Shown here piece by piece: positions 12,596 through 44,959 of a stretch of 64,000 bases of DNA. The position numbers and the translations under genes are program-made. The notes below the pieces were generated by a model. The model did no database searches and was not told the origin of the DNA. It worked only from the letters and a program-made list of their open reading frames with translations. Source of the stretch: Isurus oxyrinchus (taxonomy: Eukaryota). The stretch lies in NCBI GenBank assembly GCA_026770705.1, contig JANJGN010000010.1:56792001-56856000 (forward strand), in the 5' to 3' direction. Each line of letters starts with the position of its first letter. Position 1 is the stretch's first letter.

Positions 12596-12619
12596 AACAT
12601 CAAGAACATGAAGAGGAAG
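12596..12619 (+). CDS. tnnt3: 24-nt His/Glu microexon, unit 1: EHQEHEEE
   Basis: ggattacAG|AACATCAAGAACATGAAGAGGAAG|GTAATG; phase 1-1, in frame. Confidence 0.8.
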
Positions 12620-15600
12620 GTAATGATGATGATTCCCAATTTCTCTTTGTTTTGCCCACTACCTTCTTTTACTTATATAAGTTAACACTACAATACAATT
12701 CCAGCACTCTTAATGTTGTAATATCATGAAGGGCAAGCACTTCAGTATTTTTTTCTGATCTATGGCTACCAGATTCTACCTGTATCTTTGTATCTTGCCC
12801 AAGCAGCTTTTTTCATGTGTGAGCCTAGGCAGGATATGTTGACAGATTATTTGATTTTGGAGAGCATCACAGCAGAACCTAAATTTGCCTTCACCTATCA
12901 TCTACACATGGAGTAACAGCAGACTTTATTGATAGGAATCACAAGTGGGAAGCAATGGTTGACATTTTACCTGTGCCTAGCTCAAAGTTATTGGGAACAG
13001 CTGTAATGCTCCCTGCCTGAGGCTTGACTGATTGAGCAAGGGCCAGACATTCAGCCTGGGGCATTAAAGTAACACCTAATTTACCCACTGTGTTTCCTCC
13101 CTCTTTTTTTAGTCGCCTCTTAACATACACCATCACAGAAAATTTTATTTCAGTTGTTCTATAATTTCCCCTTACCCTGCTTAGTTCATTGGGAAGAATG
13201 GAACTGTGGAACTCATTGGGCACATCTCCGAGGGTACAAACCCATCTCTTTACCAGATTATGACATACACATACAACTGCTAAATGACAACTGCAATGGA
13301 ACTCTCTTGAAATCAAATCTTAATTGCCTGTTGAAAAAATGGATCTTGTTGCAGGTGTTATGTTTTCACTGTGTACAAAAATGACCAAACAAATCTGCAT
13401 AATGCTGTGCCAACTTTTAAATGAAATCAGAACATGACTAGTGCTGAGGACTATTAAGTATCTAATACCTGCATTCACCTAAACATAAGCAAAAGTAATA
13501 GATAACCTTTAAAATAGGCTATAGTATAAATTTATTTACATCGTGATTTGACTAACAACGGAAAGTCAAATTTTGATATATGCAATAGGTTGGCAGTCAA
13601 TTAAATAATAGGTTAACCCCTTCCATATTAATTTCAAGAAGAAATGTTTATATTGGTTTCCTGCTACAAACTTAGATTGAGCGTGTTTAGGATGCCACCA
13701 GAACAAAGAGATTGGTTGTAAAAGTGCAGTGTCAGAATAAATTTGACTTAAGTACCAAAATACTTATAGAAGGTAGTTGCATATATCATGGTTTCAACAT
13801 TGATTTGAAATTGGAAATATAAATAAAAATATAATTGTAAGTGAGTGCTGGGTGAATTTGTAGCTCTAAGGTTTTAATTGTAAACAGGTTTTGATGTTTT
13901 GGAATTGATCTTGATTGAGTTGTTTCACAGTGAATGGAAATGCTTCAAACTGTTGGAAAATGTTGAACTTGAGCATGGTTGGACTTTTTTGTAAGTGCAA
14001 CTTGTCAGAAATGATTTTAAGTGAATTCCATTGTAAATATAACTGTTCACAAATTCACAATCCTAATTCTTAAAAATCTGTTAATCCTACAATCTTCAGA
14101 TTTTCAAAATCCATGTTGACATTTAGTAGTCACTACTTCCTCATTCATTCAACATTTTCTACTATCCTTTTCAACCCTGGTAGTGTCATTCAAGGTGGAC
14201 TTTTACCATTCACACTGTTTTCCCAATTCAAAGGCAATGAAGGTAAAAGTTCTACTGTCACCCAACCAAGAATGGTGTAGATTACTCCTGCTGCCTTGGG
14301 CCATATGCCAATCAAATATTATTTATTATATCATTTCATGATACATCAGTAAATAGATTTCTTTTAGAAGAATTTCTGCAATAAAAGCTTCAATATTAAG
14401 CTTAATATCAATGAACAGAAAAATGGTTTTGCATTTTAAAAAAAATTCCATTTAGGGTGAGTTGATTGCCTTTAGCACTCAACTCAACCCAAATCTCCTG
14501 AAATGGGAGGAATTTAAGGGTGTTGGAATGATACTTGTGACTTTTTTTTTGTTTGGGTTTATGTGTAACAAAGTTGTCCTTTATTTCAACAATTAGATGA
14601 TATTTGTGCATGCTGAATTGAAAGTTGTGTTAATGGTGTCAGGGTGTGGTGTTTTGCTCTTGTGCAGATTTTTCTTTAATTATACACTGGTTTCTCCTGA
14701 TATAACTTTTATAACATAGTTAAGTCAATATTGTTCCTTTTCTGCTTTTCCACCTGTGCCTTTCTATTCCATGCACTGCTGCTTTTCTGCTTGCTACACG
14801 CTAACAACATCTTCAGCAATGGTTGTCCAAGAGTCTATTGATTTGTCCTGGATTATCATTTCTCAATGATTTCCCACCACCAATGTTAAACTGATTGACC
14901 TGTAGTTGCTGGGTTTATCCTTACCCAGGGATAAGGGTGTAGCATTGCAATTCTCCAGTCCTCTAGCATTAATCTTGTACATATGGATGATTGGAAAATT
15001 ATGGCTTGTACCACCACAATTTACATCCATACTTCCCTTAGCATCATTGGATGCATCCCATCTGGTCCTGATGACTTATCAATTTTAAGTACAGTCAGCC
15101 TTTACAATGCCTCCTCTGTGTCAATTTTTTGCTTATTCAGTGTCTTAGCCACCTCCTTTTTCAGTGGCCTCTTTCTCATTATCACCCATTTTGGCAAATT
15201 AAACTCAACCCTAAATTTTATTTCTGACGAGGCTCGCAAAAGAGGAGGTAGTTGATCACTGAATGGGCTAAACATTGAAAAAGAGGAGGTATTAGAAGGG
15301 CTGTCTGTACGTAAGCTAAAGTTTATTTTAACTTATTATAACAGTAACAAAAATAATGGCAGATTGTTTTGCAAAAATCCAGAGTAATCATTTCATATTA
15401 TTAGCAATTGAATCACAACTTTTGTTTTTTACAAAAAAGCCTAACTTTTAATGAAATAAAATGGAAAACTGGGCAGGAAGTATAATGGTCGGCTGGTTCA
15501 ACCTCGCTCGTTTACACCCCTGCCATTGTTGAAGACTCTGGTGTATTCCTTTATCTCAGTTGACCGCTGTGTTGTCAATCAAACTGTGGCATCTGGCAGA

Positions 15601-15722
15601 GTGATTGCAGTCACTTATTGTGTTGTGGTTGATTTACCTTATGATTGCCCATTTTGTGCATCTGTATACATATGTAACTTACTTATGTGAACTATGTGGC
15701 AAATCAAGAACATTTCTATTAA

Positions 15723-15761
15723 CAAAAACAAAATTACCTGGAAAAACTCAGCAGGTCTGGC
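15723..15761 (-). mobile_element. 39-bp Penelope-like fragment with ~14-bp TSD, unit 2 only
   Basis: caaaaacaaaattacctggaaaaactcagcaggtctggc is flanked by aacatttctattaa / aacatttctatgaa; the other units show the empty site. Confidence 0.85.
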
Positions 15762-17033
15762 AACATTTCTATGAAGTTGGTTAGTTGCAATGACAGAGTA
15801 ATACATAAAATATATTTAAAATAAAGATCTGTTATTTTAAATTGTTTTGTACATTCTATGTGTGAGTTTGTTTGTTTTTATGTGTATAGACAGAGATGGC
15901 ATCTAAAGTATACCTATATGAACTGCATCAACAATTGCCAGCAATTTTTTAAAGTTCTGTCGTTCAGGATTCACCTAATTTATATGCCTCCATATATTCT
16001 TTTACTCATTCCTTTCCCTGCTTTAATTTTAATTTATTTAATATTTTAGTATGTAATTATACTGATTTTGAATCAATATAATTACCAATTTTTCAAAAAT
16101 ACTTGAGTTCTTTCTTATTTTACAATTTTTTTTATGGACAGTATTTCTTGGAGGTTGGAATGTCAGTTGCTGAACTGCAAACTCAGCTTGGATCTGTTGG
16201 TTATTCTCTTAACACTAAGTCTGCACAGCTGCCATTACGAATAGAGAGAAGTTCTGGCTCATGGATATTTCCTGTCTTCCCTTTCCCTCTTCCCTCTTCA
16301 TTACTTTTTGAGTTTTTGCTCCTTCTCTATTTGTCTGATCAAGTTGTAACTTATAGCTTGTTAGATATGCTTTTAAAGTTTGCTACATTTTGTTTTTTGG
16401 ACTGGGAGCTAAACAGTTCTCATAATAACTTTCAAAATGTAAGGATTTAATAAAAATAGCTTCCTCCAGTTTTCTCTCCTTCCAGTAAGTGCAAAGTCCT
16501 TGCAATGATGCACGAAGCCATTCTTCAACTCAAGCCTTGCTAGTGAGTGTTAGCAGGCTATTTAACCATACCCTAATGACCAAGCCCCATGGATGCAGGC
16601 AGGCCTCTGGAATGTTGCCTGAGTGGCCATTCTTCTTGTGTAAACATGTGCAGTGAGTGTCGGCCAGTCAGATAAATCATTGCAACCATATATAATCCTG
16701 TTCTGACTTGATCCTCCCACATGTGCACTTTCCATCATAAGTCATTGAATGAGATTTCTTGCTGACTTTTCTCTGTCTAGTTTAGGATGCTGTGGTCAAT
16801 TGTAATGTCATAAGTTGTGCACTAACTGGGAGCAGTTAACTCAGCTCAGGTTAGGGGTGAAAACTGGGATCTTCTATGAGCATTTTGAGCTTATCCAGTT
16901 TACAGCTGGCTATTGGCCCAGGACTTTTGTAGGGAATCTTGTAGTCGCTGCCCATGGTGAAGGCAGTGTAAGTAATGAAGACTGAGTTCGCTGTGATTAA
17001 TCACCATTTATTATCTCTGGTGTTGGATTACAG

Positions 17034-17057
17034 AACATCATGAACATCACGAGGGAG
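17034..17057 (+). CDS. tnnt3: 24-nt His-rich microexon, unit 2: EHHEHHEG
   Basis: ggattacAG|AACATCATGAACATCACGAGGGAG|GTAATG; phase 1-1. Confidence 0.75.
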
Positions 17058-20000
17058 GTAATGATGATGATTCCCAATTTCTCTTTGTTTTGCCCACTGA
17101 CGTCTTGTACTTATATAAGTTAACGCTACAATACAATTCCAGCACTCTTAATGTTGTAATATCATGAAGGGCAAGCACTTCAGTATTTTTTTCAGAGCTA
17201 TGGCTACCAAGTTCTATCTGTATCTTTGGTATCTTGCCCAAGCAGCTTTCTTCATATGTGAGCCTAGGCAAGATATATTGACCGATTATTTGACTTTGGA
17301 GAGCATCACAGCAGAACCTAAACTTGCCTTCACCTATCATCTACACATGGAGTAACAGCAGCCTTTACTGATAGGGATCACAAGTGGGAAGCAATGGTTG
17401 ACATTTTTCCTGTGCCTAGTTCAAAGCTATTGGGAACAGTTGTAATGCTCCCTGCTTGAGGCTTGACTGATTGAGCAAGGGCCAGACATTCAGCCTGGGG
17501 CCTTCCAGTAACACCTAATTTACCCACTGTGTTTCCTCCCTCTTTTTTTAGTTGCCTCTTAACATACACCATCACAGAAAATTTTCTTTCAGTTTTTCTA
17601 TAATTTCCCCTTACCCTGCTTAGTTCATTGGGAAGAATGGAACTGTGGAATTCATTGGGCACATCTCTGAGGGTACAAACCCATCTCTTTACCAGATTAT
17701 GACATAAACATACGACTGCTAAATGACAACTGCAATGGAACTCTCTTGAAATTAAATCTTAATTGTCTATTGAAAAAGTGGATCTTGTTGCAGGTGTTAT
17801 GTTTTCACTGTGTACAACAAATGGACCAAACAAATCTGCATAATGCTGTGCCAACTTTTAAATCAAATCACAGCTTGACTAGTGCTGAGGGCTATTGAGT
17901 ATCTAATACCTGCATTCACCTAAACACAAGCAAAAGTAATACATAACCTTTAAATTAGGCTATTGTATAAATTTATTTACATCGTGATTTAATAACAAAG
18001 GAACGTCAAATTCTGATATATACAATAGGTTGGCAGTCAATTAGATAATAGATTAACCCCTTCCATATTAATTTCAAGAAGAAATGTTTATATAGGTTTC
18101 CCACTACAAACTTAGATTGAGTGTGTTTAGGTTGTAGCCAGAATAAAAAGATTGCTTGTAAAAGTGCAGTGTCAGAACAGATTTGACTTAAGTACCAAAA
18201 TACTTATAGAAGGTATTTGCATATATCATGGTTCAACAATGATTTGCATTTGGAAATATAAATAAAAATATAATTGTAAGTGAGTGCTGGGTGAATTTGT
18301 AGCTCTAAGGTTTTAATTGTAACCAGATTTTGATGTTTTGGAATTGATCTTGATTGTGTTGTTTCACAGTGAATGGAAATGCTCTCGAACTGTTAGAAAA
18401 GTTTGATCCTGAGCAAGGTTGAACTTTTTCGTAAGTGCAACTTGTCAAAAACGATCTTAAGTGAATTCCATTGTAACTATAATGGTTCACAATTTCACAA
18501 TCCTAATTCTTAAAAATCTGTTAATCCTACAATCTTCAGATTTTCAAAATCCACTTTGACATTTAGTAGTCACTACTTCCTCATTCATTCAACACTTTCT
18601 ACTATTCTTTTCACCTCTGGTAGATTTCTTTTAGAAGAATTTCTGCAATAAAAGCTTCAATATTAAGCTTAATATCAATGAACAGGCAAATGGTTCTGCA
18701 TTTAAAAAAATTTCCATTTAGGGCGAGTTGATTAACTTTAGCATTCAACTCACCCTAAATGTCCTGAAATGTCAGGAATTTAAGGGTGTTGGAATGATAC
18801 TTGTGACTTTTTGTTGTTTGCGTTCATGTGTAACAAAGTTATCCTTTATTTCAGCAATTAGATGGTATTTGTGCATGCTGAAGTGAATTGCAGTGAAAGT
18901 TGTGTTAATGGTGTCAGGGTGTGGTGTTTTGCTCTTGTGCAGATTTTTCTTTAATTATACACTGGTTTCTCCTGATATAACTTTTATAACATATTTATGT
19001 CAATATTGTTCCTTTTCTGCTTTTCCACCTGTGCCTTTCTATTCCATGCACTGCTGCTTTTCTGCTTGCTACACGCTAACACCATCTTCGGAAGAGGTAG
19101 TCCAAGAGTCTATTGATTTTGTCCTATTTTATCATTTCTCAATGCTTTCCCACCACCAGTGTTAAACTGAATGACCTGTAGTTGCTGGGTTTATCCTTAC
19201 CCACGGATAAGGGTGTAGCATTGCAATTCTCCAGTCCTCAAGAATTAATCTTGTACATATGGATGATTGGAAAATTATGACGGGTGCCACCACATTTTAC
19301 ATCCATACTTCCCTTAGCATCATTGGATGCATCCCATCTGGTCCCGATGACTTATCAACTTTAAGTACAGTCAGCCTTTATAATACCACCTCTTTATCAA
19401 TTTTTAGCCTATTCAGTGTCTTAGCCACCTCCTCTTTCAGTGGCCTCTTTCTCATTATCGCCCATTTTGGCAAATTATCTCAACCCTAAACTTTATTTCT
19501 GACGAGGCTAGCAAAAGAGGAGGTAGTTGATCACTGAATGGGCTAAAAATTGAAAAAGGGGAGTTATTAGAAAGGCTGTCTGTACTTAAGCTAAAGTTTA
19601 TTTTAAATTATTATAATGATAACAAAATAATGGCAGATGGTGTTGCAAGAATCCAGAGTAATGGTTTTATATCATTTGCCATTGAATCACAACTTTAGTT
19701 TTTCCAAAATGATGATACTTAAAAAAAAAGCCTAACTTTTAATGAAGTAAAATGGAAAATTTGGCAGGCTGTATAATGGTCGGCTGATTCAACCTCGCTC
19801 ATATTACACCCTGCCATTGTTGAAGGTTCTGGCGTATTCCTTTATATCAGTTGACCGCTGTGTTGTCAGTCAAAATGTGGCATCTAGCAGAGTGATTGCA
19901 GTCACTTATTGTGTTGTGGTTGATTTAACTCCTTATCTTATGATTGCCTATATTGTGCATCTGTATTCATATGTAACTTACTTATGTGAACTATGTGGCA

Positions 20001-21298
20001 AATCAAGAACATTTCTGTTAAGTTGGTTAGTTGCAATGACAGAGTAATATATAAAATATATTTAAAATAATGATCTGTAATTTTAAATTATTCTGTACAT
20101 TCCATGTGTGTGTATGTGTGTGTGTTTATGTGTATAGACAGCGATGGCATCTAAAGTATATCTGTATGAACTACTTCAGCAATTGCCAGCAATTTTTTTA
20201 ATGTTCTGTCGTTCAGGATTCTCTTAATTTATATGCCTCCATATATACTTTTACACATTCCTTTCCCTGCTTTAATTTTGATTTACTTAATATTTTAATC
20301 ACTAATTATACTGATTTTGAATTAATACAATTATCAATTTTTCAAAAATACTTGAGTTCTTTGTTATTTTGTAATTTTTTAAAATGATTTGCACTATGAT
20401 GTACAGTATTTCTCGGAGGTTGGAAGTGTCAGTTGCTGAACTGCAAACTCAGCTTGAATCTGATGGTTATTCTCTTAACACTAAGTCTGCACAGCTGCCA
20501 TTACGAATAGAGAGAAGTTCTGGCTCATGGAAATTTCCTGTCTTCCCTTTCCCCCTTCCCTCTTCATTACTTTTTGAGTTTTTGCTCCTTCTCTATTTGT
20601 CTGATCAAATTGCATCTTGTAGCCCGTTAGATATGCTTTTAAAGTTTGTTACAGGTTTTTTTTTTGGATTGGTTGCTAAAGAGTTCTCTCATCATAACTT
20701 CCAAAATGTAAGGATTTAAAAAAAAATAGCTTCCTCCAGTTTTCTCTCCTTGCCAGAAAGTGCAATCTCCTTGCAATGATGCACGAAGCCATTCTTCAAC
20801 TCAAGCCTTGCCAGTGAGTGTTAGCAGGCTATTTAACCATACCCTAATAACCAAGCCCCATGGATGCTGGCAGGCCTCTGGAATGTTGCCTGAGTGGCCA
20901 TTCTTCTTGTGTAAACCTGTGCAGTGAGTGTCGGCGGGTCAGATAAATCATTGCAACCATATATAATCCTGTTCTGACTTGATCCTCCCACATGTGCACT
21001 TTCTAGCAGAAGTCATTGAATGGGATTTCTGACTAACTTTTCTCTGTCTAGTTTAGGATGCTGTGGTCAATTGTAATGTCATAAGTTGTGTCCTAACTGG
21101 GAGCAGTTAACTCAGCTCAGGTTAGGGGTGAAAACTGGGATCTTCTATGAGCATTTTTAGCTTCTCCAGATTACGGCTGGCTAATGGTCCAGGACTTTTG
21201 TGGGGAATCTTATAGTCGATGCCCATGGTGAAGGCAGTGTAAGTAATGAAGACTGAGTTTGCTGTGATTAATCTGTTATCTCTGGTGTTGGATTACAG

Positions 21299-21322
21299 AA
21301 CATCATGAACATCCCAAGGAAG
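21299..21322 (+). CDS. tnnt3: 24-nt His-rich microexon, unit 3: EHHEHPKE
   Basis: ggattacAG|AACATCATGAACATCCCAAGGAAG|GTAATG; phase 1-1. Confidence 0.75.
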
Positions 21323-24300
21323 GTAATGATGATGATTCCCAATTTCTCTTTGTTTTGCCCACTGCCATCTTTTTCTTATATAAGTTAACACTACAATACA
21401 ATTCCAGCACTCTTAATGTTGTAATATCATGAAGGGCAAGCACTTCAGTATTTTTTTCTGAGCTATGGCTACCAAATTCTATCTGTATCTTTGTATCTTG
21501 CCCAAGCAGCTTTCTTCATATGTGAGCCTAGGCAGAATATGTTGACAGATTATTTGACTTTGGAGAGCATCACAGCAGAACCTAAACTTGCCTTCACCTA
21601 TCATCTACACATGGAGTAACAGCAGACTTTATTGATAGGGTCACAAGTGGGAAGCAATGGTTGACATTTTTCTTGTGCCTAGCTCAAAGCTATTGAGAAC
21701 AATGCTCCCTGCCTGTGGCTTGACTGATTGAGCAAGGGCCAGACATTCAGCCTGGGGCCTTCCAGTAACACCTAATTTACCAACTGTGTTTCCTCCCTCT
21801 TTTTTTAGTCGCCTCTTAACATACACCATCACAGAAAATTTTCTTTCTGTTGTTCTATAATTTCCCCTTACCCTGCTTAGTTCATTGGGGAGAATGGAAC
21901 TGTGGAACTCATTGGGCACATCTCCAAGGATACAAACCCATCCCTTTACCAGATTATGACATACACATACGACTGCTAAATGACAACTGCAATGGAACTC
22001 TCTTGAAATCAAATCTTAATTGCCTGTTGAGAAAGTGGATCTTGTTGCAGGTGTTATGTTTTCACTGTGTACAAAAAAGACCAAAAAATCTGCATAATGC
22101 TGTGCCAACTTTTAAATTAAATCACAGCATGACTAGTGCTGAGGGCTTTTAAGTATCTAACACCTGCATTCACCTAAACATAAGCAAAAGTAATAGATAA
22201 CCTTTGAAATAGGCTATTGTATAAATTTATTTACATCGTGATTTGACTAACAAAGGAACGTCAAATTCTGATATATGCAATAGGTTGGCAGTCAATTAGA
22301 AATAGATTAACCCCTTCCATATTAATTTCAAGAAGAAATGTTTATATTGGTTTCCCACTACAAACTTAGATTGAGTGTGTTTAGGATGTAACCAGAACAA
22401 AGAAATGGTTGTAAAAGTGCAGTGTCAGAACAAATTAAACTTAAGTACCAAAATACTATAGAAGGTATTTGCATATATTATGGTTTCAACATTGATTTGA
22501 ATTTGGAAAAATAAATAAAAATATAATTGTAAGTGAGTGCTGGGTGAATTTGTAGCTCTAAGATTTTAGTGGTAACCAGGTTTTAATGTTTTGGAATTGA
22601 TCTTGATTGTGTTGTTTCACAGTGAATGGAAATGCTTTCGAACTGTTAGAAAAGTTTGATCTTGAGCATGGTTGGACTTTTTCGTAAGTGCAACTTGTCA
22701 GAAATGATTTTAAGTGAATTCCATTGTAACTATAATTGTTCACAATCCTAATTCTTAAAAATCTGTTAATCCTACAATTTCAGATTTTCAAGATCCATGT
22801 TGACATTTAGTAGTCACTACTTCCTCATTCATTCAACATTTTCTACTATTCTTTTCATCCCTGGTAGTGTCATTCAAGGTGGATTTTTACCATTCACACT
22901 GTTTTCCCAATTCAATGGCAATAAAAGTAAAAGTTCTACTGTAACTCAACCAAGAATGGTGTAGATTACGCCTGCTGCCTTGGGCCATATGCCAATCAAA
23001 TATTATATATTATATAATTTCATGATACATCAATAAATAGGTTTCTTTTAGAAGAATTTCTGCAATAAAAGCTTCAATATTAAGCTTAATATCAATGAAC
23101 AGGCAAATGGTTCTGCATTTAAAAAAATTTCCATTTAGGGCGAGTTGATTGCCTTTAGCATTCAACTCACCCTAAATGTCCTGAAATGTCAGGAATTTAA
23201 GGGTGTTGGAATGATACTTTTGACTTTTCTTTTTATTTGGGTTTATGTGTAACAAAATTGTCCTTTATTTCAACAATTAGATGATATTTGTGCATGCTGA
23301 AGTGAATTGCAGTGAAAGTTGTGTTAGTGTGTCAGGGCGTCGTGTTTTGCTCTTATGCAGATTTTTCTTTAATTATACACTGGTTTCTCCTGATATAACT
23401 TTTATACCATATTTATGTTAATATTGTTCCTTTTCTGCTTTTCCACCTGTGCCTTTCTATTCCATGCACTGCTGCTTTTCTGCTTGCTACACGCTAACTC
23501 CATTTTCAGAAGAGGTAGTCCAAAAGCCTATTGATTTTGTCCTGGATTATCATTTCTCAATGCTTTCCCACCACCAATGTTAAACTGATTGACCTGTAGT
23601 TGCTGGGTTTATCCTTACCCAGGGATAAGGGTGTAGCATTGCAATTCTCCAGTCCTCTAGCATTAATCTTGTACATATGGATGATTGGAAAATTATGACT
23701 GGTACCACCACAATTTACATCCATACTTCCCTTCGCATCATTGGATGCATCCCATCTGGTCGCAATGAATGATCAACTTTAAGTACAGTCAGCCTTTATA
23801 ATACCACCTCTTTATCAATTTTTTGCTTATTCAGTGTCTTAGCCACCTTGTTTTTCAATGGCCTCTTTCTCATTATCACCCATTTTGGCAACTTGAACTC
23901 AACCCTAAACTTTATTTCTGCCGAGGCTAGCAAAAGAGGATGTAGTTGATCACTGAATGGGCTAAAAATTGAAAAAGGGGAGTTATTAGAAAGGCTGTCT
24001 GTACTTAAGCTAAAGTTTATTTTAAATTATTATAACAATAACAAAATAATGGCAGATGGTGTTGCAAGAATCCAGAGTAATGGTTTTATATTATTTGCCA
24101 TTGAATCACATCTTTAGTTTTTACAAAAATGATGATACTTAAAAAAAAAGCCCAATTTTAAATGAAGTAAAATGGAAAACTGGGCAGGCTGTATGATGGT
24201 CGGTTGATTCAACATTGCTCGTTTTACACCCTGCCATTGTTGAAGGTTCTGGCGTATTTCTTTATATCAGTTGACCGCTGTGTTGTCAGTCAAAATGTGG

Positions 24301-25708
24301 CATCTAGCAGAGTGATTGCAGTCACTTATTGTGTTGTGATTGATTTAACTCCTTACCTTATGATTGCCCATATTGTGCATCTGCGCAACTTACTAATGTG
24401 AACTATGTGGCAAATCAAGAACATTTCTATTAAGTTGATTAGTTGCAATGACAGAGTAATACATAAAATATATTTAAAATAAAGATCTGTTATTTTAAAT
24501 TATTCTGTACATTCTATGTGTGTGTGTTTATGTGTATAGACAGAGATGGCATCTAAAGTATACCTATAAGAACAATTGCCAGCGTTTCTTTTAATCTTCT
24601 GTTGTTCAGGATTCACTTAATTTATATGCCTCCATATATTCTTTCACACATTCCTTTCCCTGCTTTAATTTTGATTTATTTAATATTTTAATCTCTAATT
24701 ATACTGATTTTGAATTAATATCATTATCAATTTTTCAAAAATACTTGAGTTCTTTCTTATTTTATAATTTTTTAAAAATGTATTGCAGTACTGTGTTGTA
24801 CTGTATTTCTCGAAGGTTGGAAGTGTCAGTAGCTGAGCTGCAAACTCAGCTTGGATCTGATGGTTATTCTCTTAACACTAAGTCTGCACAGCTGCCATTA
24901 CGAATAGAGAGAAGTTCTGGCTCATGGAAATTTCCTGTCTTCCCTTTCGCCCTTCCCTCTTCATTACTTTTGAGTTTTTGCTCCTTCTCTATTTGTCTGA
25001 TCAAGTTGCATCTTGTAGCCTGTTAGATATGCTATTAAAGTTTGTTACATTTTGTTTTGCTGGATTGGGTGCTAAAGAGTTCTCTCATCATAACTTCCAA
25101 AATGTAAGGATTTAAAAAATGTAAGGATTTAAAAAATAAATAGCTTCCTCCAGTTTTCTCTCCTTGCCACAAAGTGCAAAGTCCTTGCAATGATGCTCGA
25201 AGCCATTCTTCAACTCAAGCCTTGCCAGTGAGTGTTAGCAGGCTATTTATCCATACCCTAATAACCAAGCCCCATTGATGCTGGCAGGCCTCTTAAATGT
25301 TGCCTGAGTGGCCATTCTTCTTGTGTAAACCTGTGCAGTGAGTGTCGGCCGGTCAGATAAATCATTGCAACCATATATAATCCTGTTCTGACCTGATCGT
25401 CCCACATGTGCACTTTTCCATCATAAGTCATTGAATGAGATTTCTGGCTGACTTTTCTCTGTCTAGTTTAGGATGCTGTGGTCAATTGTAATGTCCTAAG
25501 TTGTGCCCTAACTGGGAGCACTTAGCTCAGGTTAGGGGTGAAAACTGGGATCTTCTATGAGCATTTTTAGCTTCTCCAGATTACGGCTGGCTAATGGTCC
25601 AGGACTTCCGTAGGGAATCTTGTAGTTGATGCCCATGGTGAAGGCAGTGTAAGTAATGAAGACTGAGTTTGCTGTGATTAATCTATTATCTCTGGTGTTG
25701 GATTACAG

Positions 25709-25732
25709 AACATCATGAACATCACGAGGGAG
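25709..25732 (+). CDS. tnnt3: 24-nt His-rich microexon, unit 4: EHHEHHEG
   Basis: ggattacAG|AACATCATGAACATCACGAGGGAG|GTAATG. Confidence 0.75.
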
Positions 25733-30123: not shown

Positions 30124-30147
30124 AACATCATGAACATCACGAGGGAG
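30124..30147 (+). CDS. tnnt3: 24-nt His-rich microexon, unit 5: EHHEHHEG
   Basis: ggattacAG|AACATCATGAACATCACGAGGGAG|GTAATG. Confidence 0.75.
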
Positions 30148-32772: not shown

Positions 32773-32810
32773 AGTTCTGTCGAAGGGTCATGAGGACTCG
32801 AAACGTCAAC
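32773..32810 (+). ncRNA. Minimal type I hammerhead-ribozyme-like motif with variant core (mirror copy on - strand at ~31335-31377)
   Basis: aGTT-CTGTCGA-a-GGGTC-atgag-GACTC-GAAA-CG-TC^AAC: stem I GTT/AAC, stem II, GAAA box and palindromic ACGT in place of stem III. The core CUGUCGA deviates from CUGANGA. Confidence 0.55.
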
Positions 32811-35800
32811 CCAGAACAAAGAGATTGCTTGTAAAAGTACAGTGTCAGAACAAATTAGACTTAAGTACCAAAATACTTATAGAAGGTATTTGCATATATT
32901 ATGGTTTCAACATTGATTTGAATTTGGCAAAATAAATAAAAATATAATTGTAAGTGAGTGCTGGGTGAATTTGTAGCTCTAAGCTTTTAAATTTTTGATG
33001 TTTTGGAATTGATCTTGATTGTGTTGTTTCACAGTGAATGGAAATGCTTTCGAACTGTTAGAAAAGTTTGATCTTGATCATGGTTGGACTTTTTTGTAAG
33101 TGCAACTTGTCAAAACCAATTTTAAGTGAATTCCATTGTAACTATAATTGTTCACAACGCTAATTCTTAAAAATCTGTTAATCCTACAATCTTCAGATTT
33201 TCAAAATCCATGTTGATATTTAGTAGTCACTACTTCCTCATTCATTCAACATTTTCTACTATCCTTTTCAACCCTGTTAGTGTCATTCAAGGTGGACTTT
33301 TACCATTCACACTGTTTTCCCAATTCAAAGGCAATGAAGGTAAAAGTTCTACTGTAACCCAACCAAGAATGGTGTAGATTACGCCTGCTGCCTTGGGCCA
33401 TATGCCAATCAAATATTATATCTTATATAATTTCATGATACATCAGTAAATAGATTTCTTTTAGAAGAATTTCTGCAATAAAAGCTTCAATATTAAGCTT
33501 AATATCAATGAACAGGAAAATGTTTTTGCATTTTAAAAAATTTCCATTTAGGGCGAGTTGATTAACTTTAGCATTCAACTCACCCTAAATGTCCTGAAAT
33601 GTCAGGAATTTAAGGGTGTTGGAATGATACTTGTGACTTTTTTTTTGTTTGGGTTTATGTGTAACAAAGTTGTCCTTTATTTCAACAATTAGATGATATT
33701 TGTGCATGCTGAAGTGAATTGCAGTGAAAGTTGTGTTAGTGGTGTCAGGGTGTCGTGTTTTGCTCTTATGCAGATTTTTCTTTAATTATACACTGGTTTC
33801 TCCTGATATAACTTTTATAACATATTTATGTTAATATTGTTCCTTTTCTGCCTTTCCACCTGTGCCTTTCTATTCCATGCACTGCTGCTTTTCTGCTTGC
33901 TACACGCTAACAACATCTTCAGAAGAGGTTGTCCAAGAGTCCATTGATTTTGTCCTGGATTATCATTTCTCAATGATTTCCCACCACCAATGTTAAACTG
34001 AATGACCTGTAGTTGCTGGGTTTATCCTTACCCAGGGATAAGGGTGTAGAATTGCAATTCTCCAGACCTCTAGCATTAATTTTGTACAGATGGATGATTG
34101 GAAAATTATGACTGGTACCACCACAATTTACATCCATACTTCCCATAGCATCATTGGATGCATTCCATCTGGTCCTGATGAATTATCAATTTTAAGTACA
34201 GTCAGCCTTTATAATGCCTCCTCTTTATCAATTTTTAGCCTATTCAGTGTCTTAGCCACCTCCTTTTTCAATGGCCTCTTTCTCATTATCCCCCATTTTG
34301 GCAAATTGAACTCAACCCTAAAATTTATTTCTGAAGAGGCTAGCAAAAGTGGAGGTAGTTGATCATTGAATGGGCTAAAAATTGAAAAAGGGAAGTTATT
34401 AAAATGACTGTCTGTACTTAAGCTAAAGTTTATTTTAAATTATTATAACAATAACCAAATAATGGCAGATGGTGTTGCAAGAATCCAGAGTAATGGTTTT
34501 ATATTATTTGCAATTGAATCACAACTTTAGTTTCTCCAAAAATACTTAAAAAAAAGCCTAACTTTTAATGAAGTAAAATGGAAAAGGGCAGGCTGTATAA
34601 TGCTCGGCTGATTCAACCTCACTCGTTTTACACCCTGCCATTGTTGAAGGTTCTGGCGTATTCCTTTATATCAGTTGACTGCTGTGTTGTCAGTCAAAAT
34701 GTGGCATCTAGCAGAGTGATTGCAGTCACTTATTGTGTTGTGATTGATTTAACTCTTTATCTTATGATTGCCCATATTGTGCTTCTGTATGCATATGTAA
34801 CTTACTTATGTGAACTTTGTGGCAAATCAAGAACATTTCTATTAAGTTGGATTGTTGCAATGAGTAATACATAAAATATATTCAAAATCAAGATCTGTTA
34901 TTTTAAATTATTCTGTACATTCTATGTGTGTGTATGTGTGTGTTTATGTGTATAGACAGAAATGGCATCTAAAGTATACCTATATGAACTACTTCAACAA
35001 TTGCCAGCAATTCTTTTAATGTTCTGTTGTTCAGGATTCACTTATTTATATGCCTCCATATTTTCTTTTACATTCCTTTCCCTGCTTTAATTTTGATTTA
35101 TTTAATATTTTAATCTCTAATTGTACTGATTTTGAATTAATATGATTATCAATTTTCCAAAAATACTTGAGTTCTTTCTTACTTTCTAATTTTTTAAAAA
35201 TGTGTTGCAGTATTCAGTACTGTATTTCTCGGAGGTTGGAAGTGTCAGTTGCTGAACTGCAAACTCAGCTTGGATCTGATGGTTATTCTCTTAACACTAA
35301 GTCTGCACAGCTGCCATTACGAATAGAAAGAAGTTCTGGCTCATGGAAATTTCCTGTCTTCCCTTTCCCCTTCCCTCTTCATTACTTTTGAGTTTTTTGC
35401 TCCTTCTCTATTTGTCTGATCAAGTTGCATCTTGTAGCCTGTTAGATATGCTTTTAAAGTTTGTTACATTTTGTTTTGTTGGATTGGGTGCTAAAGAGTT
35501 CTCTCACCATAACTTCCAAAATGTAAGGAATTAAAAAATAAATAGCTTCCTCCAGTTTTCTCTCCTTGCCACAAAGTGCAAAGTCCTTGCAATGATGCTC
35601 GAAGCCATTCTTCAACTCAAGCCTTGCCAGAGAGTGTTAGCAGGCTATTTAACCATACCCTAATAACCAAGCCCCATGGATGCTGGCAGGCCTCTTGAAT
35701 GTTGCCTGAATGGCCATTCTTCTTGTGTGAACCTATGCAGTGAGTGTTCGCCGGTCAGATAAATCATTGCAACCATATATAATCCTGTTCTGACCTGATC

Positions 35801-36109
35801 CTCCCACATGTGCACTTTCCATCATAAGTCATTGAATGAGATTTCTGGCTGACTTTTCTCTGTCTAGTTTGGGATGCTGTGGTCAATTGTAAAGTCCTAA
35901 GTTGTGCCCTAACTGTGAGCACTTAGCTCAGGTTAGGGGTGAAAACTGGGATCTTCTATGAGCATTTTTAGCTTCTCCAGATTACGGCTGGCTAATGGTC
36001 CAGGACTTTCGTAGGGAATCTTGTAGTTGATGCCCATGGTGAAGGCAGTGTAAGTAATGAAGACTGAGTTTGCTGTGATTAATCTATTATCTCTGGTGTT
36101 GGATTACAG

Positions 36110-36133
36110 AACATCATGAACATCACGAGGGAG
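36110..36133 (+). CDS. tnnt3: 24-nt His-rich microexon, unit 6: EHHEHHEG
   Basis: ggattacAG|AACATCATGAACATCACGAGGGAG|GTAATG. Confidence 0.75.
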
Positions 36134-39100
36134 GTAATGATGATGATTCCCAATTTCTCTTTGTTTTGCCCACTGCCATCTTTTACTTATATAAGTTAAC
36201 GCTACAATACAATTCCAGCACTCTTAATGTTGTAATATCATGAAGGGCAAGCACTTCAGTATTTTTTTCTGAGCTATGGCTACCAAGTTCTATCAGTATC
36301 TTTGTATCTTGCCCAAGCAGCTTTCTTCATATGTGAGCCTAGGCAGGATATGTTGACAGATTATTTGACTTTGGAGAGCATCACAGCAGAACCTAAATTT
36401 GCCTTCACCTATCATCTACACATGGAGTAACAGCAGACTTTATTGATAGGGATCACAAGTGGGAAGCAATGGTTGACATTTTATCTGTGCCTAGCTCAAA
36501 GCTATTGGGAACTGTAATGCTCCCTGTCTGAGGCTTGACTGATTGAGCAAGGGCCAGACATTCAGCCTGGGGCATTCCAGTAACACCTAATTTACCAACT
36601 GTGTTTCCTCCCTGTTTTTTTAGTCGCCTCTTAACATACACCATCACAGAAAATTTTCTTTCAGTTGTTCTATAATTTCCCCTTACCCTGCTTAGTTCAT
36701 TGGGGAGAATGGAACTGTGGAACTCATTGGGCACATCTCCAAGGATACAAACCCATCCCTTTACCAGATTATGACCTACACATATGACTGCTAAATGACA
36801 ACTGCAATGGAACTCTCTTGAAATCAAATCTTAATTGCCTGTTGAAAAAGTGGATCTTGTTGCAGGTGTTATGTTTTCACTGTGTACAAAAAAGACCAAA
36901 CAAATGTGCATAATGCTGTGCCAACTTTTAAATTAAATCACAGCATGACTAGTGCTGAGGGGTATTAAGTATCTAACACCTGCATTCACCTAAACATAAG
37001 CAAACGTTTTAGATAACCTTTGAAATAGGCTATTGTACAAATTTATTTACATCATGATTTGACTAACAACAGAACGTCAAATTCTGATATATGCAATAGG
37101 TTGGCAGTCAATTAGATAATAGATTAACCCCTTCCATATTAATTTCAAGAAGAAATGTTTATATTGGTTTCCCGCTACAACCTTAGATTGAGTGTGTTTA
37201 GGATGTCACCAGAACAAAGAGATTGCTTGTAAAAGTACAGTGTCAGAACAAATTAGACTTAAGTACCAAAATACTTATAGAAGGTATTTGCATATATTAT
37301 GGTTTCAACATTGATTTGAATTTGGCAAAATAAATAAAAATATAATTGTAAGTGAGTGCTGGGTGAATTTGTAGCTCTAAGCTTTTAAATTTTTGATGTT
37401 TTGGAATTGATCTTGATTGTGTTGTTTCACAGTGAATGGAAATGCTTTCGAATTGTTAGAAAAGTTTGATCTTGATCATGGTTGGACTTTTTTGTAAGTG
37501 CAACTTGTCAAAACCAATTTTAAGTGAATTCCATTGTAACTATAATTGTTCACAATCCTAATTCTTAAAAATCTGTTAATCCTACAATCTTCAGATTTTC
37601 AAAATCCATGTTGACATTTAGTAGTCACTACTTCCTCATTCATTTAACATTTTCTACTATCCTTTTCAACCCTGGTAGTGTCATTCAAGGTGGACTTTTA
37701 CCATTCACACTGTTTTCCCAATTCAAAGGCAATGAAGGTAAAAGTTCTACTGTAACCCAACCAAGAATGGTGTAGATTACGCCTGCTGCCTTGGGCCATA
37801 TGCCAATCAAATATTATATATTATATAATTTCATGATACATCAGTAAATAGATTTCTTTTAGAAGAATTTCTGCAATAAAAGCTTCAATATTAAGCTTAA
37901 TATCAAAGAACAGGAAAATGTTTTTGCATTTTAAAAAATTTCCATTTAGGGCGAGTTGATTAACTTTAGCATTCAGCTCACCCTAAATGTCCTGAAATGT
38001 CAGGAATTTAAGGGTGTTGGAATGATACTTGTGACTTTTTTTTTGTTTGGGTTTATGTGTAACAAAGTTGTCCTTTATTTCAACAATTAGATGATATTTG
38101 TGCATGCTGAAGTGAATTGCAGTGAAAGTTGTGTTAGTGGTGTCAGGGCGTCGTGTTTTGCTCTTATGCAGATTTTTCTTTAATTATACACTGGTTTCTC
38201 CTGATATAACTTTTATAACATATTTATGTTAATATTGTTCCTTTTCTGCCTTTCCACCTGTGCCTTTCTATTCCATGCACTGCTGCTTTTCTGCTTGCTA
38301 CACGCTAACAACATCTTCAGAAGAGGTTGTCCAAGAGTCCATTGATTTTGTCCTGGATTATCATTTCTCAATGATTTCCCACCACAAATGTTAAACTGAA
38401 TGACCTGTAGTTGCTGGGTTTATCCTTACCCAGGAATAAGGGTGTAGAATTGCAATTCTCCAGTCCTCTAGCATTAATTTTGTACATATGGATGATTGGA
38501 AAATTATGACTGGTACCACCACAATTTACATCCATACTTCCCATAGCATCATTGGATGCATTCCATCTGATCCTGATGAATTATCAATTTTAAGTACAGT
38601 CAGCCTTTATAATGCCTCCTCTTTATCAATTTTTAGCCTATTCAGTGTCTTAGCCACCTCCTTTTTCAATGGCCTCTTTCTCATTATCCCCCATTTTGGC
38701 AAATTGAACTCAACCCTAAAATTTATTTCTGAAGAGGCTAGCGAAAGAGGAGGTAGTTGATCATTGAATGGGCTAAAAATTGAAAAAGGGAAGTTATTAG
38801 AAAGCCTGTCTGTACTTAAGCTAAAGTTTATTTTAAATTATTATAACAATAACAAAATAATGGCAGTTGGTGTTGCAAGAATCCAGAGTAATGGTTTTAT
38901 ATTATTTGCAATTGAATCACAACTTTAGTTTTTACAAAAATGATGATACTTAAAAAAAAACCTAACTTCTAATAAGTAAAATGGAAAACTGAGCAGGCTG
39001 TATAATGGTCGGCTGATTCAACCTCGCTCGTTTTACACCCTGCCATTGTTGAAAGTTCTGGCGTATTCCTTTATCTCAGTTGACTGCTGTGTTGTCAGTC

Positions 39101-40515
39101 AAAATGTGGCATCTAGCAGAGTGATTGCAGTCACTTATTGTGTTGTGGTTGACTTAACTCCTTACCCTATGATTGCCTATATTGTGCATCTGCATGCATA
39201 TGTACCTACTTATGTGAACTATGTGGCAAATCAATAACATTTCTATTAAGTTGGTTAGTTGCAATGACAGAGTAATACATAAAATATATTTAAAATCAAG
39301 ATCTGTTATTTTAAATTATTCTGTACATTCTATGTGTGTGTGTGTGTTTATGTGTATAGACAGCGATGGCATCTAAAGTATACCTATATGAACTATTCAA
39401 CAATTGCCAGCAATTTTTTTAATGTTCTGTCGTTCAGGATTCACTTAATTTATATGCTTCCATATATTCTTTTACACATTCCTTTCCCTGCTTTAATTTT
39501 GATTTATTTAATATTTTAGTCCGTAATTATACTGATTTTGAATTAATATAATTATCAATTTTTCAAAAATACTTGAGTTCTTTCTTATTTTATATATTTT
39601 TAAAAATGTGTTGCAGTATTATGTACTGTATTTCTCGGAGGTTGGAAATGTCAGTTGCTGAACTGCAAACTCAGCTTGGATCTGATGGTTATTCTCTTAA
39701 CACTAAGTCTGCACAACTGCCATTACGAATAGAAAGAAGTTCTGGCTCCTGGAAATTTCCTGTCTTCCCTTTCCCCCTTCCCTCTTAATTACTTTTGAGT
39801 TTTTGCTCCTTCTCTATTTGTCTGATCAAGTCGCATCTTGTAGCCTGTTAGATATGCTTTTAAAGTTTGTTACATTTTGTTTTGTTGGATTGGGTGCTAA
39901 AAAGTTCTCTCATCATAACTTCCAAAATGTAAGGAATTAAAAAATAAATAGCTTCCTCCAGTTTTCTCTCCTTGCCACAAAGTGCAAAGTCCTTGCAATG
40001 ATGCTCGAAGCCATTCTTCAACTCAAGCCTTGCCAGTGAGTGTTAGCAGGCTATTTAACCATACCCTAATAACCAAGCCCCATTGATGCTGGCAGGCCTC
40101 TTGAATGTTGCCTGAATGGCAATTCTTCTTGTGTGAACCTGTGCAGTGAGTGGTCGCCGGTCAGATAAATCATTGCAACCATATATAATCCTGTTCTGAC
40201 CTGATCCTCCCACATGTGCACTTTCCATCATAAGTCATTGAATGAGATTTCTGGCTGACTTTTCTCTGTCTAGTTTGGGATGCTGTGGTCAATTGTAAAG
40301 TCCTAAGTTGTGCCCTAACTGTGAGCACTTAGCTCAGGTTAGGGGTGAAAACTGGGATCTTCTATGAGCATTTTTAGCTTCTCCAGATTACGGCTGGCTA
40401 ATGGTCCAGGACTTTCGTAGGGAATCTTGTAGTTGATGCCCATGGTGAAGGCAGTGTAAGTAATGAAGACTGAGTTTGCTGTGATTAATCTATTATCTCT
40501 GGTGTTGGATTACAG

Positions 40516-40539
40516 AACATCATGAACATCACGAGGGAG
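40516..40539 (+). CDS. tnnt3: 24-nt His-rich microexon, unit 7: EHHEHHEG
   Basis: ggattacAG|AACATCATGAACATCACGAGGGAG|GTAATG. Confidence 0.75.
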
Positions 40540-43500
40540 GTAATGATGATGTTTCCAAGCTTCTCTATGTTTTGCCCACTGCCATCTTTTTCTTATATAA
40601 GTTAACGCTACAATACAATTCCAGCACTCTTAATGTTGTAATATCATGAAGGGCAAGCACCTCTTTTTTTTCTGAGCTATGGCTACCAACTTCCATCAGT
40701 ATCTTTGTATCTTGCCCAAGCAGCTTTCTTCATGTGTGAGCCTAGGCAGGATATGTTGACAGATTATTTGACTTTGGAGAGCATCACAGCAGAACCTAAA
40801 CTTGTCTTCACCTATCATCTACACATGGAGTAACAGCAGACTTTATTGATAGGGATCACAAGTGGGAAGCAATGGTTGACATTTTATCTGTGCCTAGCTC
40901 AAAGCTATTGGGAACAGCTGTAATGCTCCCTGTCTGAGGCTTGACTGATTGAGCAAGAGTCAGACATTCAGCCTGGGGCTTTCCAGTAACACCTAATTTA
41001 CCAACTGTGTTTCCTCCCTCTTTTTTTAGTCGTCTTTTAACATACACCATCACAGAAAATTTTCTTTCAGTTTTTATATAATTTCCCCTTACCCTGCTTA
41101 GTTCATTGGGGAGAATGGAACTGTGGAACTCATTGGCCACATCACCGAGGATACAAACCCATCTCTTTACCAAATTATGACATATACATACGACTGCTAA
41201 ATGACAACTGCAATGGAACTCTCTTGAAATCAAATCTTAATTGCCTGTTGAAAAAATGGATCTTTTTGCAGGTGTTATGTTTTCACTGTGTACAAAAAAA
41301 GGGACCAAACAAATCTGCATAATGCTGTGCCAATTTTTAAATTAAATCACAGCATGATTTGTGCTGAGGGCTATTTAATACCTGCATTCACCTAAACATA
41401 AGCAAAAGTAATAGTTAACCTTTGAAATAGACTATTGTATAAATTTAATTACATTGTGATTTGACTAACAAAGGAACGTCAAATTCTGATATATGCAATA
41501 GGTTGGCAGACAATTAGATAATAGAGTAACCCCATCCATCTTAATTTCAAGAAGGAATGTTTATATTGGTTTCCTGCTACAAACTTAGATTGGGTGTGTT
41601 TAGGATGTCACCAGAACAAAGAGATTGCTTGTAAAAGTGCAGTGTCAGAACAAATTTGACTTAAGTACCAAAATATTTATAGAAGGTATTTGCATATATT
41701 AAGGTCTCAACATTGATTTGAATTTGGAAATATAAATAAAAATATAATTGTAAGTGAGTGCTGGGTGAATTTGTAGCTCTAAGGTTTTAATTATAACCAG
41801 GTTTTGATGTGTTGGAATTGATCTTGATTGTGTTATTTCACAGTGAATGGAAATGCTTTCGAACTGTTAGAAAAGTTTGATCTTGAGCATGGTTGGACTT
41901 TTTCATAAGGTCAACTTGTCAAAAGCGATTTTAAGTGAATTCCATTGTAACTATAATTGTTCACAAATTCACAATCCTAATTCTTAAAAATCTGTTAATC
42001 CTACAATCTTCAGATTTTCAAAATCCATTTTGACATTTAGTAGTCACTACTTCCTCATTCATTCAACACTTTCTACTATTCTTTTCAACCCTGGTAGTGT
42101 CATTCAATGTGGACTTTTACCATTCACACTGTTTTCCCAATTCAAAGGCAATGAAGGTAAAAGTTCTACTGTAACCCAACCAAGAATGGTGTAGATTATG
42201 CCTGCTGCCTTGGGCCATATGCCAATCAAATATTATATATTATATAATTTCATGATACATCAGTAAATAGATTTCTTTTAGAAGAATTTCTGCAATAAAA
42301 GCTTCAATATTAAGCTTAATATCAATGAACAGGAAAATGGTTCTGCATTTAAAAAAATTTCCATTTAGGGTGAGTTAGCATTCAGCTCACCCTAAATGTC
42401 CTGAAATGTCAGGAATTTAAGGGTGTTGGAATGATACTTGTGATTTTTTTTTGTTTGGATTCACGTGTAACAAAGTTGTCCTTTATTTCAGCAATTAGAT
42501 GGTATTTGTGCATCCTGAAGTGAATTGCAGTGAAAGTTTTGTTAATGGTGCCAGGATGTGGTGTTTTGCTCTTGTGCAGATTTTTCTTTAATTATACACT
42601 GGTTTCTCCTGATATAACTTTTATAACATATTTATGTCAATAGTGTTCCTTTTCTGCTTTTCCACCTGTGGCTTTCTATTCCATGCACTGCTGCTTTTCT
42701 GCTTGCTACACGCTAACACCATTTTCAGAAAAGATTGTCCAAGAGACGGTTGATTTTGTCCTGGATTATCATTTCTCAATTCTTTCCCACCACCAATGTT
42801 AATCTGAATGACCTGTAGTTGCTGGGTTTATCCTTACCCAGGGATAAGGGTGTAGCATTGCAATTCTCCAGTCCTCTAGCATTAATCTTGTACGTATGCA
42901 TGATTGGAAAATTATGGCTTTTACCGCCACAATTTACATCCATACTTCGCTTAGCATCATTGTATACATCCCATCTGGTCAAGATGAATTATCAACTTTA
43001 AGTACAGTCAGCCTTTATAATACCTCCTCTTTATAATTTTTAGCCTATTCAGTATCTTAGCCACCTCCTTTTTCAGTGGCCTCTTTCTCATTATCACCCA
43101 TTTTGGCAAATTAAACTCAACCCTAAACTTTATTTCTGACGAGGCTCGCAAAAGAGGAGGTAGTTGATCACTGAATGGGCTAAAAATTGAAAAAGACAAG
43201 TTATTAGAAAGGCTGTCTGTACTTAAGCTAAAGTTTATTTTAAATTATTATAATGATAACAAAAATAATGGCAGATGGTATTGCAAGAATACAGAGAAAT
43301 GGTTTTATATTATTTGCAATTGAATCACAACTTTAGTTTTTACAAACATGCTAATTCTTAAAAAAAGCCTAAGTTTTAATGAAGTAAAATGGAAAAGCGG
43401 GCAGGCTGTATAATGGTCGGCTGATTCAACCTCGCTGGTATTACACCCTGCCATTGTTGAATGTTCTGGCGTATTCCTAATATCAGTTGACCGCTGTGTT

Positions 43501-44935
43501 GTCAGTCAAAATGTGGCATCCAGCAGAGTGATTGCAGTCACTTATTGTGTCGTGGTTGATTGAACTTCTTACCTTATGATTGCCCATATTATGCATTTGT
43601 ATGCATATGTAACTTACTTATGTGAACTATGTGGCAAATCAATAACATTTCTATTAAGTTGATTAGTTGCAATGACAGAGTAATACATAAAATATATTTA
43701 AAATAAAGATCTATTATTTTGTTATTCTGTACATTCTATGTGTATGTGTGTGTGTGTGTGTGTGTGTTTATGTGTATAGACAGCGATGGCATCTAAAGTA
43801 TACCTATATGAACTATTCAACAATTGCCAGCAATTTTTTTAATGTTCTGTCGTTCAGAATTCACTTAATTAATACGCCTCCATATACTCTTTTACATATT
43901 ACTTTCCCTGCTTTAATGTTGATTTATTTAATATTTTAGTCCCTAATTATACTGATTTTGAATTAATATAATTATCAATTTTTCAAAAATACTTGAGTTC
44001 TTTCTTATTTTATATATTTTTAAAAATGTATTGCAGTATTATGTACAGTATTTCTCGGAGGTTGGAAGTGTCAGTTGCTGAACTGCAAACTCAGCTTGGA
44101 TCTGATGGTTATTCTCTTAACACTAAGTCTGCACAGCTGCCATTCTGAATAGAGAGAAGTTCTGGCTCATGGAAATTTCCTGTCTTCCCTTTCCACCTAC
44201 TCTCTTCATTACTTTCTGAGTTTTTGCTCCTTCTGTATTTTGTCTGATCAAGTTGCATCGTGTAGCTTGTTAGATATGCTTTTAAACTCTGTTACATATT
44301 GTTTTGCTGGATTGGGTGCTAAAGAGTTCTCTCATCATAACTTCCAAAATGTAAGGATTTAAAAAAAAAAGCTTCCTCCAGTTTTTTCTCCTTGCCACAA
44401 AGTGCAAAGTCCTTGCAATGATGCTTGAAGCCATTCTTCAACTCAAGACTTGCCAGTGAGTGTTAGCAGGCTATTTAACCATACCCTAATAACCAAGCCC
44501 CATGGATGCTGGCAGGCCTCTTGAATGTTGCCTGTGTGGCCATTCTACTTGTGTGAACCTGGGCAGTGAGTGTCGGCCGGTCAGATAAATCATTGCAACC
44601 ATATATAATCCTGTTCTGACCTGATCCTCCCACATGTGCACTTTCCATCAGAAGTCATTGAATGGGATTTCTGGCTGACTTTTCTCTGTCTAGTTTAGGA
44701 TGCTGTGGTCAATTGTAATGTCCTAAGTTGTGCCCTAGCTGGGAGCACTTAGCTCAGGTTAGGGGTGAAAACTGGGATCTTTTATGAGCATTTTTAGCTT
44801 CTCCAGATTACGGCTGGCTAATGGTCCAGGACTTTTGTGGGGAATCTTGTAGTTGATGCCCATGGTGAAGGCAGTGTAAGTAATGAAGACTGAGTTTGCT
44901 GTGATTAATCTATTATCTCTGGTGTTGGATTACAG

Positions 44936-44959
44936 AACATCATGAACATCACGAGGGAG
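44936..44959 (+). CDS. tnnt3: 24-nt His-rich microexon, unit 8: EHHEHHEG
   Basis: ggattacAG|AACATCATGAACATCACGAGGGAG|GTAATG. Confidence 0.75.

Follow-up and report, generated by a model that had tools for sequence, protein, structure and literature searches.

A stretch of 64,000 nucleotides of the Isurus oxyrinchus genome (GCA_026770705.1, contig JANJGN010000010.1, positions 56,792,001 to 56,856,000 of the forward strand), referred to here as the window and numbered from its first base, carries the 5' part of tnnt3, in which eight 24 nt exons rich in His and Glu codons lie in tandem. Each of these is preceded by ggattacAG and followed by GTAATG, is phase 1-1, and is stop-free; joined, they encode 64 residues with 29 His (2+4+3+5x4). 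It is very probable that this array is real, exonic, and amplified in the lamniform sharks. By a slight balance of probability, it provides a splice-dosed, pH-responsive modulator of troponin T (TnT), a reading in which we infer the splicing in this species, the selection, the pH switch, and the muscle type. A wider proposal is made tentatively and is thought rather less probable: that the lamniforms evolved a His cluster of the type called Tx in galliform birds independently and under selection, tuning the pH sensitivity of the thin filament through one to eight copies, perhaps twice in parallel, since lamnids and the basking shark use different units. The exons are as follows.

12596..12619, + strand: His exon 1, EHQEHEEE, identical to the leading copy of all 21 white-shark models
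17034..17057, + strand: His exon 2, EHHEHHEG
21299..21322, + strand: His exon 3, EHHEHPKE, with 3 non-synonymous changes, a variant not among the 21 white-shark models examined
25709..25732, + strand: His exon 4, EHHEHHEG
30124..30147, + strand: His exon 5, EHHEHHEG
36110..36133, + strand: His exon 6, EHHEHHEG
40516..40539, + strand: His exon 7, EHHEHHEG
44936..44959, + strand: His exon 8, EHHEHHEG

All eight, with their starts, splice context, phase, peptides, and His count, had been reported in a preliminary description of this DNA and were recovered here. The third may be a decaying copy. A filter designed after the exons had been seen (AG, 24 nt, GTRA, open, rich in His and Glu) returns 8 on the + strand of the window, none on the - strand, and none in 100 shuffles of 2 nt blocks. 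The surrounding array and its one large insertion are located thus.

10453..47164 (end approximate), + strand: tandem array of 8 units, 4275–4427 nt each except unit 5 (6005 nt), 93.0–98.5% identical
31238..32810, strand not assigned: insertion of 1573 nt private to unit 5, with a 12 nt target-site duplication and 650 nt inverted ends (98%)

Multi-kilobase tandem duplication had been proposed as the origin of the array, and the units of 4.3–4.4 kb, 93–98.5% identical, bear this out; the proposed unit size of about 4.4 kb fits seven units, while unit 5 is 6.0 kb long. The insertion in that unit has a match to the GIY-YIG domain (PF01541, E 8.4e-5) and appears to be a recent retroelement fragment, presumably Penelope-like. 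A 501 nt probe taken around copy 5 is matched at exactly 8 places in the 4.98 Gb genome, all 8 within the array. That the array is an assembly artefact, a possibility raised in the preliminary description, is therefore unlikely, given these matches, the divergence of units that are 93.0–98.5% identical, the insertion private to unit 5, and a window without any N. Divergence is greatest in units 1, 2, and 8, towards the outside of the array, and least between units 5 and 6, as would be expected if unequal crossing-over took place in mid-array; the outer units would appear to be the oldest and units 4 to 6 the youngest.

The cluster is not peculiar to this genome. It is found in predicted protein models of two other sharks, which are the form that the evidence from relatives takes; the introns of such models need transcript support. 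The white-shark tnnt3a isoforms in RefSeq are numbered up to X31, and in the 21 distinct sequences examined there are 1, 2, 3, 4, 5, and 6 octapeptide copies in 1, 2, 8, 4, 4, and 2 cases respectively, with EHQEHEEE always first (21/21). Two or more copies are present in 20 of the 21, including junctions between distinguishable variants. These models (XP_041053846.1 and its sister isoforms) share with the mako sequence the first copy, the main unit, the position, and a matching core, but have six copies, of which the second and sixth are EHHEHEEG, rather than eight with one EHHEHPKE. The partial basking-shark model XP_078405216.1 shows the same feature with at least five units, but these are of the EHEEHHEG type.

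Copy number in orthologous chondrichthyan tnnt3, which the preliminary description had suggested as a check, is one in all five informative non-lamniforms (catshark, bamboo shark, sevengill, electric ray, and skate), where an exon of 7–11 residues with 2–3 His stands at the same position. Its ancestral-type form is EHEEHEEG, and there are catshark isoforms with and without it. This optional single-copy exon is the evident ancestor of the array, and it would appear that an ancient exon was amplified in lamniforms and changed from EHEEHEEG towards EHHEHHEG. The His gain is stepwise, from 2 to 3 to 4 per 8 residues. Each Glu-to-His change takes two base changes, and both Gln (copy 1 here) and Asp (basking shark) are seen as intermediates. 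The skate exon, at 11 residues and with a third His, has expanded slightly in a separate lineage.

The survey was widened to 203 TnT N-termini with a core anchor, drawn from the best 120 matches of each similarity search and their cluster members, and hence not a census. Eight or more His in 32 residues are found in 83 of these, of which 18 are from white shark, 1 is from basking shark, and 64 are galliform. There is no such cluster in the other N-termini of this set, nor in the non-galliform birds, turtle, mammals, and bony fish sampled. A fast TnT isoform of the yellowfin tuna has a short HDHVEEEHD stretch with 3 His, which is more than in most teleost entries seen, though not a cluster; tunas converge on lamnids.

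The oldest units of the array differ by about 7%, which corresponds to about 50 million years (My) at 7e-10 per year. Scaling to an older duplication of a pair of exons in the same gene (Jukes–Cantor distance 0.20–0.23), calibrated on the shark-ray split, puts the upper limit at about 90 My, and the rate in PMC12358869 puts the age at about 19 My (here and below, papers identified by PMC number are cited for those parts of the text that were available). Dates of 19–90 My appear compatible with either one origin or two for the lamnid and basking-shark arrays.

The structure of frame-preserving tandem mini-exons is present in the DNA, while inclusion in variable number is read from the white-shark models. 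It had been proposed that any number from 0 to 8 could be included. Several copies in variable number are indeed seen in those models, but the range is probably 1–8, because none of the 21 lacks the first copy. A further proposal, that reverse-transcription PCR should give a plain 24 nt ladder, does not hold, as five extra optional micro-exons (four of 18 nt and one of 24 nt) would give mixed steps of 18 and 24 nt. It might also be supposed that most copies are skipped or used singly, so that the protein would normally carry no more than one or two units and the array would have little importance. The acceptors of the His exons are weak (60% pyrimidine), and all eight have a consensus GTAAGT donor about 60 nt ahead of them (12537 and equivalents), just upstream of the branch region; this is too close to the His exon for an intron, and may be a splicing silencer or decoy. 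Both would favour skipping, as would a weak search in which none of 956 protein-database candidates for short His-rich TnT fragments passed 1e-5. The 20 white-shark models in which at least two copies are joined through distinguishable variants, and the five or more units of the basking-shark model, are difficult to reconcile with it, and we regard general skipping as very improbable. None of the 8 His exons has an RBFOX site within 250 nt; a QKI site is near 2 of the 8, with 2–3 MBNL-type sites on each side, and these are not informative on splicing.

The closest known system is galliform Tx, encoded by the P exons. This is in the same gene and the same variable N-terminal region, consists of mini-exons in tandem (as many as seven in birds) that preserve the frame, and is rich in His and Glu. 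Its size and computed charge titration are similar, with 18–23 His in chicken and turkey, 20–22 in white shark, and up to 29 here. The bird unit, however, is AHH(E/A)E, of 5 residues, in contrast to the 8 of EHHEHHEG, and the H(E/A)EAH pentapeptide motif is not found in the shark unit, which is an octapeptide without Ala. Birds have HxxxH only, with no i+3 pairs, whereas the shark has both HxxH and HxxxH. The shark exon directly follows exon 3 and the bird repeats are further downstream, as judged from the order of protein sequence rather than from bird DNA. Finally, the shark array was built from 4.4 kb units and has an ancient shark exon as its ancestor. Because motif, unit length, and exon ancestry differ, the shark tail is not a member of Tx; it would appear to work like Tx without homology to the avian P exons. 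Convergence on Tx had been put forward in the preliminary description, and the differences in unit length, motif, and exon position agree with this. Metal binding and muscle-specific splicing, the latter as inclusion in adult fast glycolytic muscle, have been shown for birds only.

The mechanism proposed begins with the ancestral optional 24 nt His/Glu exon of shark tnnt3, which would have been amplified in lamniforms, first by a 4.4 kb tandem duplication with its breakpoint within the next micro-exon and then by ongoing unequal crossing-over in mid-array, with the gain of His from 2 to 3 to 4 per 8 residues. As every copy is phase 1-1, several could be spliced in together in variable number, giving a disordered, alternatively dosed N-terminal tail on fast TnT that resembles galliform Tx. 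Anaerobic work would lower muscle pH, the imidazoles would take up protons, and the strong negative charge of the tail would collapse, which would alter the conformation of TnT and its binding to tropomyosin. The tail should also bind Zn, Cu, and Ni in vitro.

In a metal-free AlphaFold2 model of white-shark X2 (25-sequence alignment), residues 8–78 have a predicted local distance difference test (pLDDT) score below 50 and no helix, and a long helix starts at residue 90. The continuous i,i+3 and i,i+4 His described previously is present as spacing, but with no helix predicted in the His segment (pLDDT 30–33) and with Gly in most units. Computed with independent sites and assumed pKa values (6.5 for His), the N-terminal charge goes from −24.7 at pH 7.4 to −8.2 at pH 6.2 with all 8 copies, compared with −20.5 to −18.0 for catshark X11 and −20.0 to −9.6 for chicken TnTx7. 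The charge swing is 16–17 with eight copies, 12–13 for white-shark X2, 10–11 for chicken TnTx7, and 2.5 for catshark. In avian Tx, the conformational effect of Zn binding reaches the tropomyosin-binding region, tropomyosin binding is more stable at low pH, and protonation has been proposed to act like Zn (PMC8990283, PMC11016001). Lamnids have a raised white-muscle metabolic capacity (PMC5630876).

A role as bulk proton buffer was considered separately. Muscle buffering is in the tens of mM per pH unit, against which 20–29 His at an assumed 0.05–0.1 mM troponin would contribute at most 0.6–1.7 mM per pH unit, and because this is so small it is rejected as the main role.

The cluster could instead be mainly a metal site, serving as a Zn/Cu ligand or chaperone (for AMP deaminase, for example) or as a low-affinity Ca2+ reservoir, as proposed for Tx. 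With all 8 copies there are 13 HH, 14 i+3, and 11 i+4 His pairs, counted by spacing only. Such sites would, on an estimate from general muscle values, far outnumber total muscle Zn, and the helix propensity of the shark unit is lower than that of AHHEE and AHHAE (0.58 vs 0.40 and 0.32). Tx itself binds Zn and several Ca2+, and a zinc bridge between TnT and AMPD1 has been proposed, but the partner site on AMPD1 is confined to primates and rabbit (PMC11016001). A metal-stabilised helix of Tx is named in the title of a reference in PMC8990283. We consider a mainly metal-binding role improbable.

Several points weaken the case for a selected, pH-responsive tail. Of 24 read runs listed for the last exon and 3' untranslated region (UTR), 20 cover part or all of these, and four (X1, X2, X11, and X12; assembled contigs with no tissue record, whose RNA status is a guess) were followed over 6700–13000. 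In all four the depth is zero on the His exon, but it is equally zero on control exon 2, which deprives the result of weight in either direction; nothing from X12 aligned in this interval, and the joints listed for the four runs are repeat-derived. The white-shark evidence is from predicted models, in which identical 24-mers can inflate the combinations of isoforms. The outgroup copy number is from annotations, and models of 8 further chondrichthyan species are without this part. A separate 2.3 kb duplication in the window indicates that this locus duplicates readily. Across the units, 6 of the 24 columns of the His exon vary, compared with a background of 16.2%, and all of these changes are non-synonymous, including the Pro in copy 3; the exon shows no greater conservation than the sequence on either side of it. 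A simple link to burst swimming is harder to maintain for the basking shark, which feeds by filtering, although probable regional endothermy has been reported for it (PMC10645071). Lastly, the function of avian Tx is itself described as unresolved (PMC7581897).

Neutral copy-number drift is a serious rival, though an unlikely one in our estimation. It would hold that the variable N-terminus takes almost any acidic filler, that phase-symmetric exons survive duplication, that unequal crossing-over changes their number, and that the gain of His is incidental. The lack of conservation of the exon relative to its flanks and the degenerate copy 3 are what drift would give, as are the difference between 8 copies here and 6 in the white-shark models, the two other duplications at the locus, and a genome of 4.98 Gb; a 2001 paper on Tx reportedly has tolerance to structural drifting in its title. 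On the other side, only 3 of the 60 columns before the His exon vary, which is fewer than the 16.2% background would predict (binomial p 0.008; 3% of windows are as low). None of the 8 donor columns varies, which is not significant (p 0.24). That no copy has lost its AG or GT, or acquired a stop or indel, counts weakly, as this would often be expected by chance alone. His rose through two-step codon changes at two positions and in two lamniform lineages, and the most His-rich form is present in 6 of the 8 copies. The evidence on selection is mixed; the direction of the changes, towards His in both lamniform lineages, may point to selection.

If a selected tail of this kind is the correct reading, a feature regarded as exclusive to galliform birds would have arisen a second time. 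From one origin alone, adaptation and drift cannot be told apart; the lamniform sharks would supply the second, with a different unit, an ancestor that can be traced to a single copy, and species that have 1, at least 5, 6, and 8 copies, so that the question can be put to the test both comparatively and with a clean dose series in reconstituted thin filaments. The tail would also be a candidate contractile-protein change in warm-bodied, high-performance sharks; to our knowledge, lamniforms are the only sharks with regional endothermy. Selection scans of ortholog alignments would probably miss it, because it is in micro-exons that are skipped.

The preliminary description could not confirm that the cluster is undescribed. 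The sequences are already public as automatic RefSeq predictions of white-shark isoforms; the feature is less singular than the preliminary description held, and better supported. No description of the shark His cluster in TnT was found in the literature searched, which leaves supplements, primary Tx papers, and most subscription journals outside, and its undescribed status is provisional. In the available text of PMC11016001 the only related mention is of a Zn-binding motif, present in a few isoforms of fish that include cartilaginous ones; the word 'shark' is absent from the 2026 reviews checked; and 'histidine' is absent from the available text of PMC9825255, the supplementary alignments of which may contain these sequences.

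The rest of the coding exons of tnnt3 in the window are as follows.

8593..8633, + strand: first coding exon, with the ATG at 8614, ending in phase 2; the peptide is the same as the white-shark tnnt3a N-terminus
8870..8877, + strand: exon 3, 8 nt, phase 2 to phase 1, matching ...EEVYE in shark proteins
47156..47173, + strand: optional 18 nt exon, EEFAEE
48092..48109, + strand: optional 18 nt exon, EAYSEE, with counterparts in ray and skate proteins
55426..55443, + strand: optional 18 nt exon, EEVVEE, an older duplicate of the 47156 exon
56245..56262, + strand: optional 18 nt exon, EVHHEE, an older duplicate of the 48092 exon
57633..57656, + strand: optional 24 nt exon, VYGNEEED, with an identical peptide in catshark isoforms
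60144..60162, + strand: 19 nt exon, EEKPKIK, going from phase 1 to phase 2 at the close of the variable region
62726..62771, + strand: first exon of the conserved troponin T core, beginning in phase 2; the remaining core exons are 3' of the window

Seven of these micro-exons, two that close the frame and five optional, had been missed previously. The array had been described as in frame with the flanking tnnt3 exons; the frame does close, but only through the 8 nt exon at 8870–8877 and the 19 nt exon at 60144–60162, the flanks named then being in phase 2. The core exons were followed downstream, within the next 20 kb of contig, and match white-shark tnnt3a with mismatches only at exon edges (residues translated from intron). 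Two alternative 3' exons (16/17) are a trait of TNNT3, and both are found downstream of the window. A fast troponin I (TnI) gene, with best PDB matches to fast TnI, is about 0.5 Mb upstream on the same strand, and this tandem is locus II of PMC9825255. Because of the core match, the alternative 3' exons, and this neighbour, the gene is identified as tnnt3, encoding fast skeletal TnT, as was first thought, and the host as a cartilaginous fish, also as first thought, and more narrowly as a lamnid-like shark. Troponin-family matches in the genome are at four loci (C10, C30, C13, and C9), with two tandem TnI-like genes on C13, in agreement with the four-locus scheme of PMC9825255.

The breakpoint of the tandem duplication is inside the 47156 exon, so that units 1–7 end in a copy of the acceptor of that exon. 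The would-be exon starts at these relic acceptors are 14817, 19092 (where the AG is lost), 23510, 27918, 33923, 38321, and 42729, and no strong donor pattern indicating an extra exon is present within 300 nt of any of the seven. In the older duplication, which generated the pair 55426/56245 from 47156/48092, the flanks are 80–83% identical, and both 18 nt exon pairs have counterparts in ray and skate proteins. Duplication of micro-exons thus appears to be recurrent at the tnnt3 locus.

The 2.3 kb tandem duplication occupies 1870–4183 and 4183–6536; its copies are 94.6% identical, a divergence similar to that of the array. Each copy has a MEF2-like site (2706/5060), a CCAAT, a TATAAG (2807/5161), and a GTAAGA donor (2901/5255), and the observed/expected CpG ratio is about 0.6 here and 0.21 in the array. 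To judge from these motifs, each copy seems to comprise a muscle promoter of tnnt3 and a first exon that is non-coding. A well-formed 50 nt AG...GTAAGT exon candidate upstream of exon 2, at 7043–7092, is possibly a further 5' UTR exon; read run X2 alone has depth in the bin that contains it (mean 14.9). Long pyrimidine-rich tracts of low complexity, at 61430–62050 and 47200–47830, lie in introns beside micro-exons.

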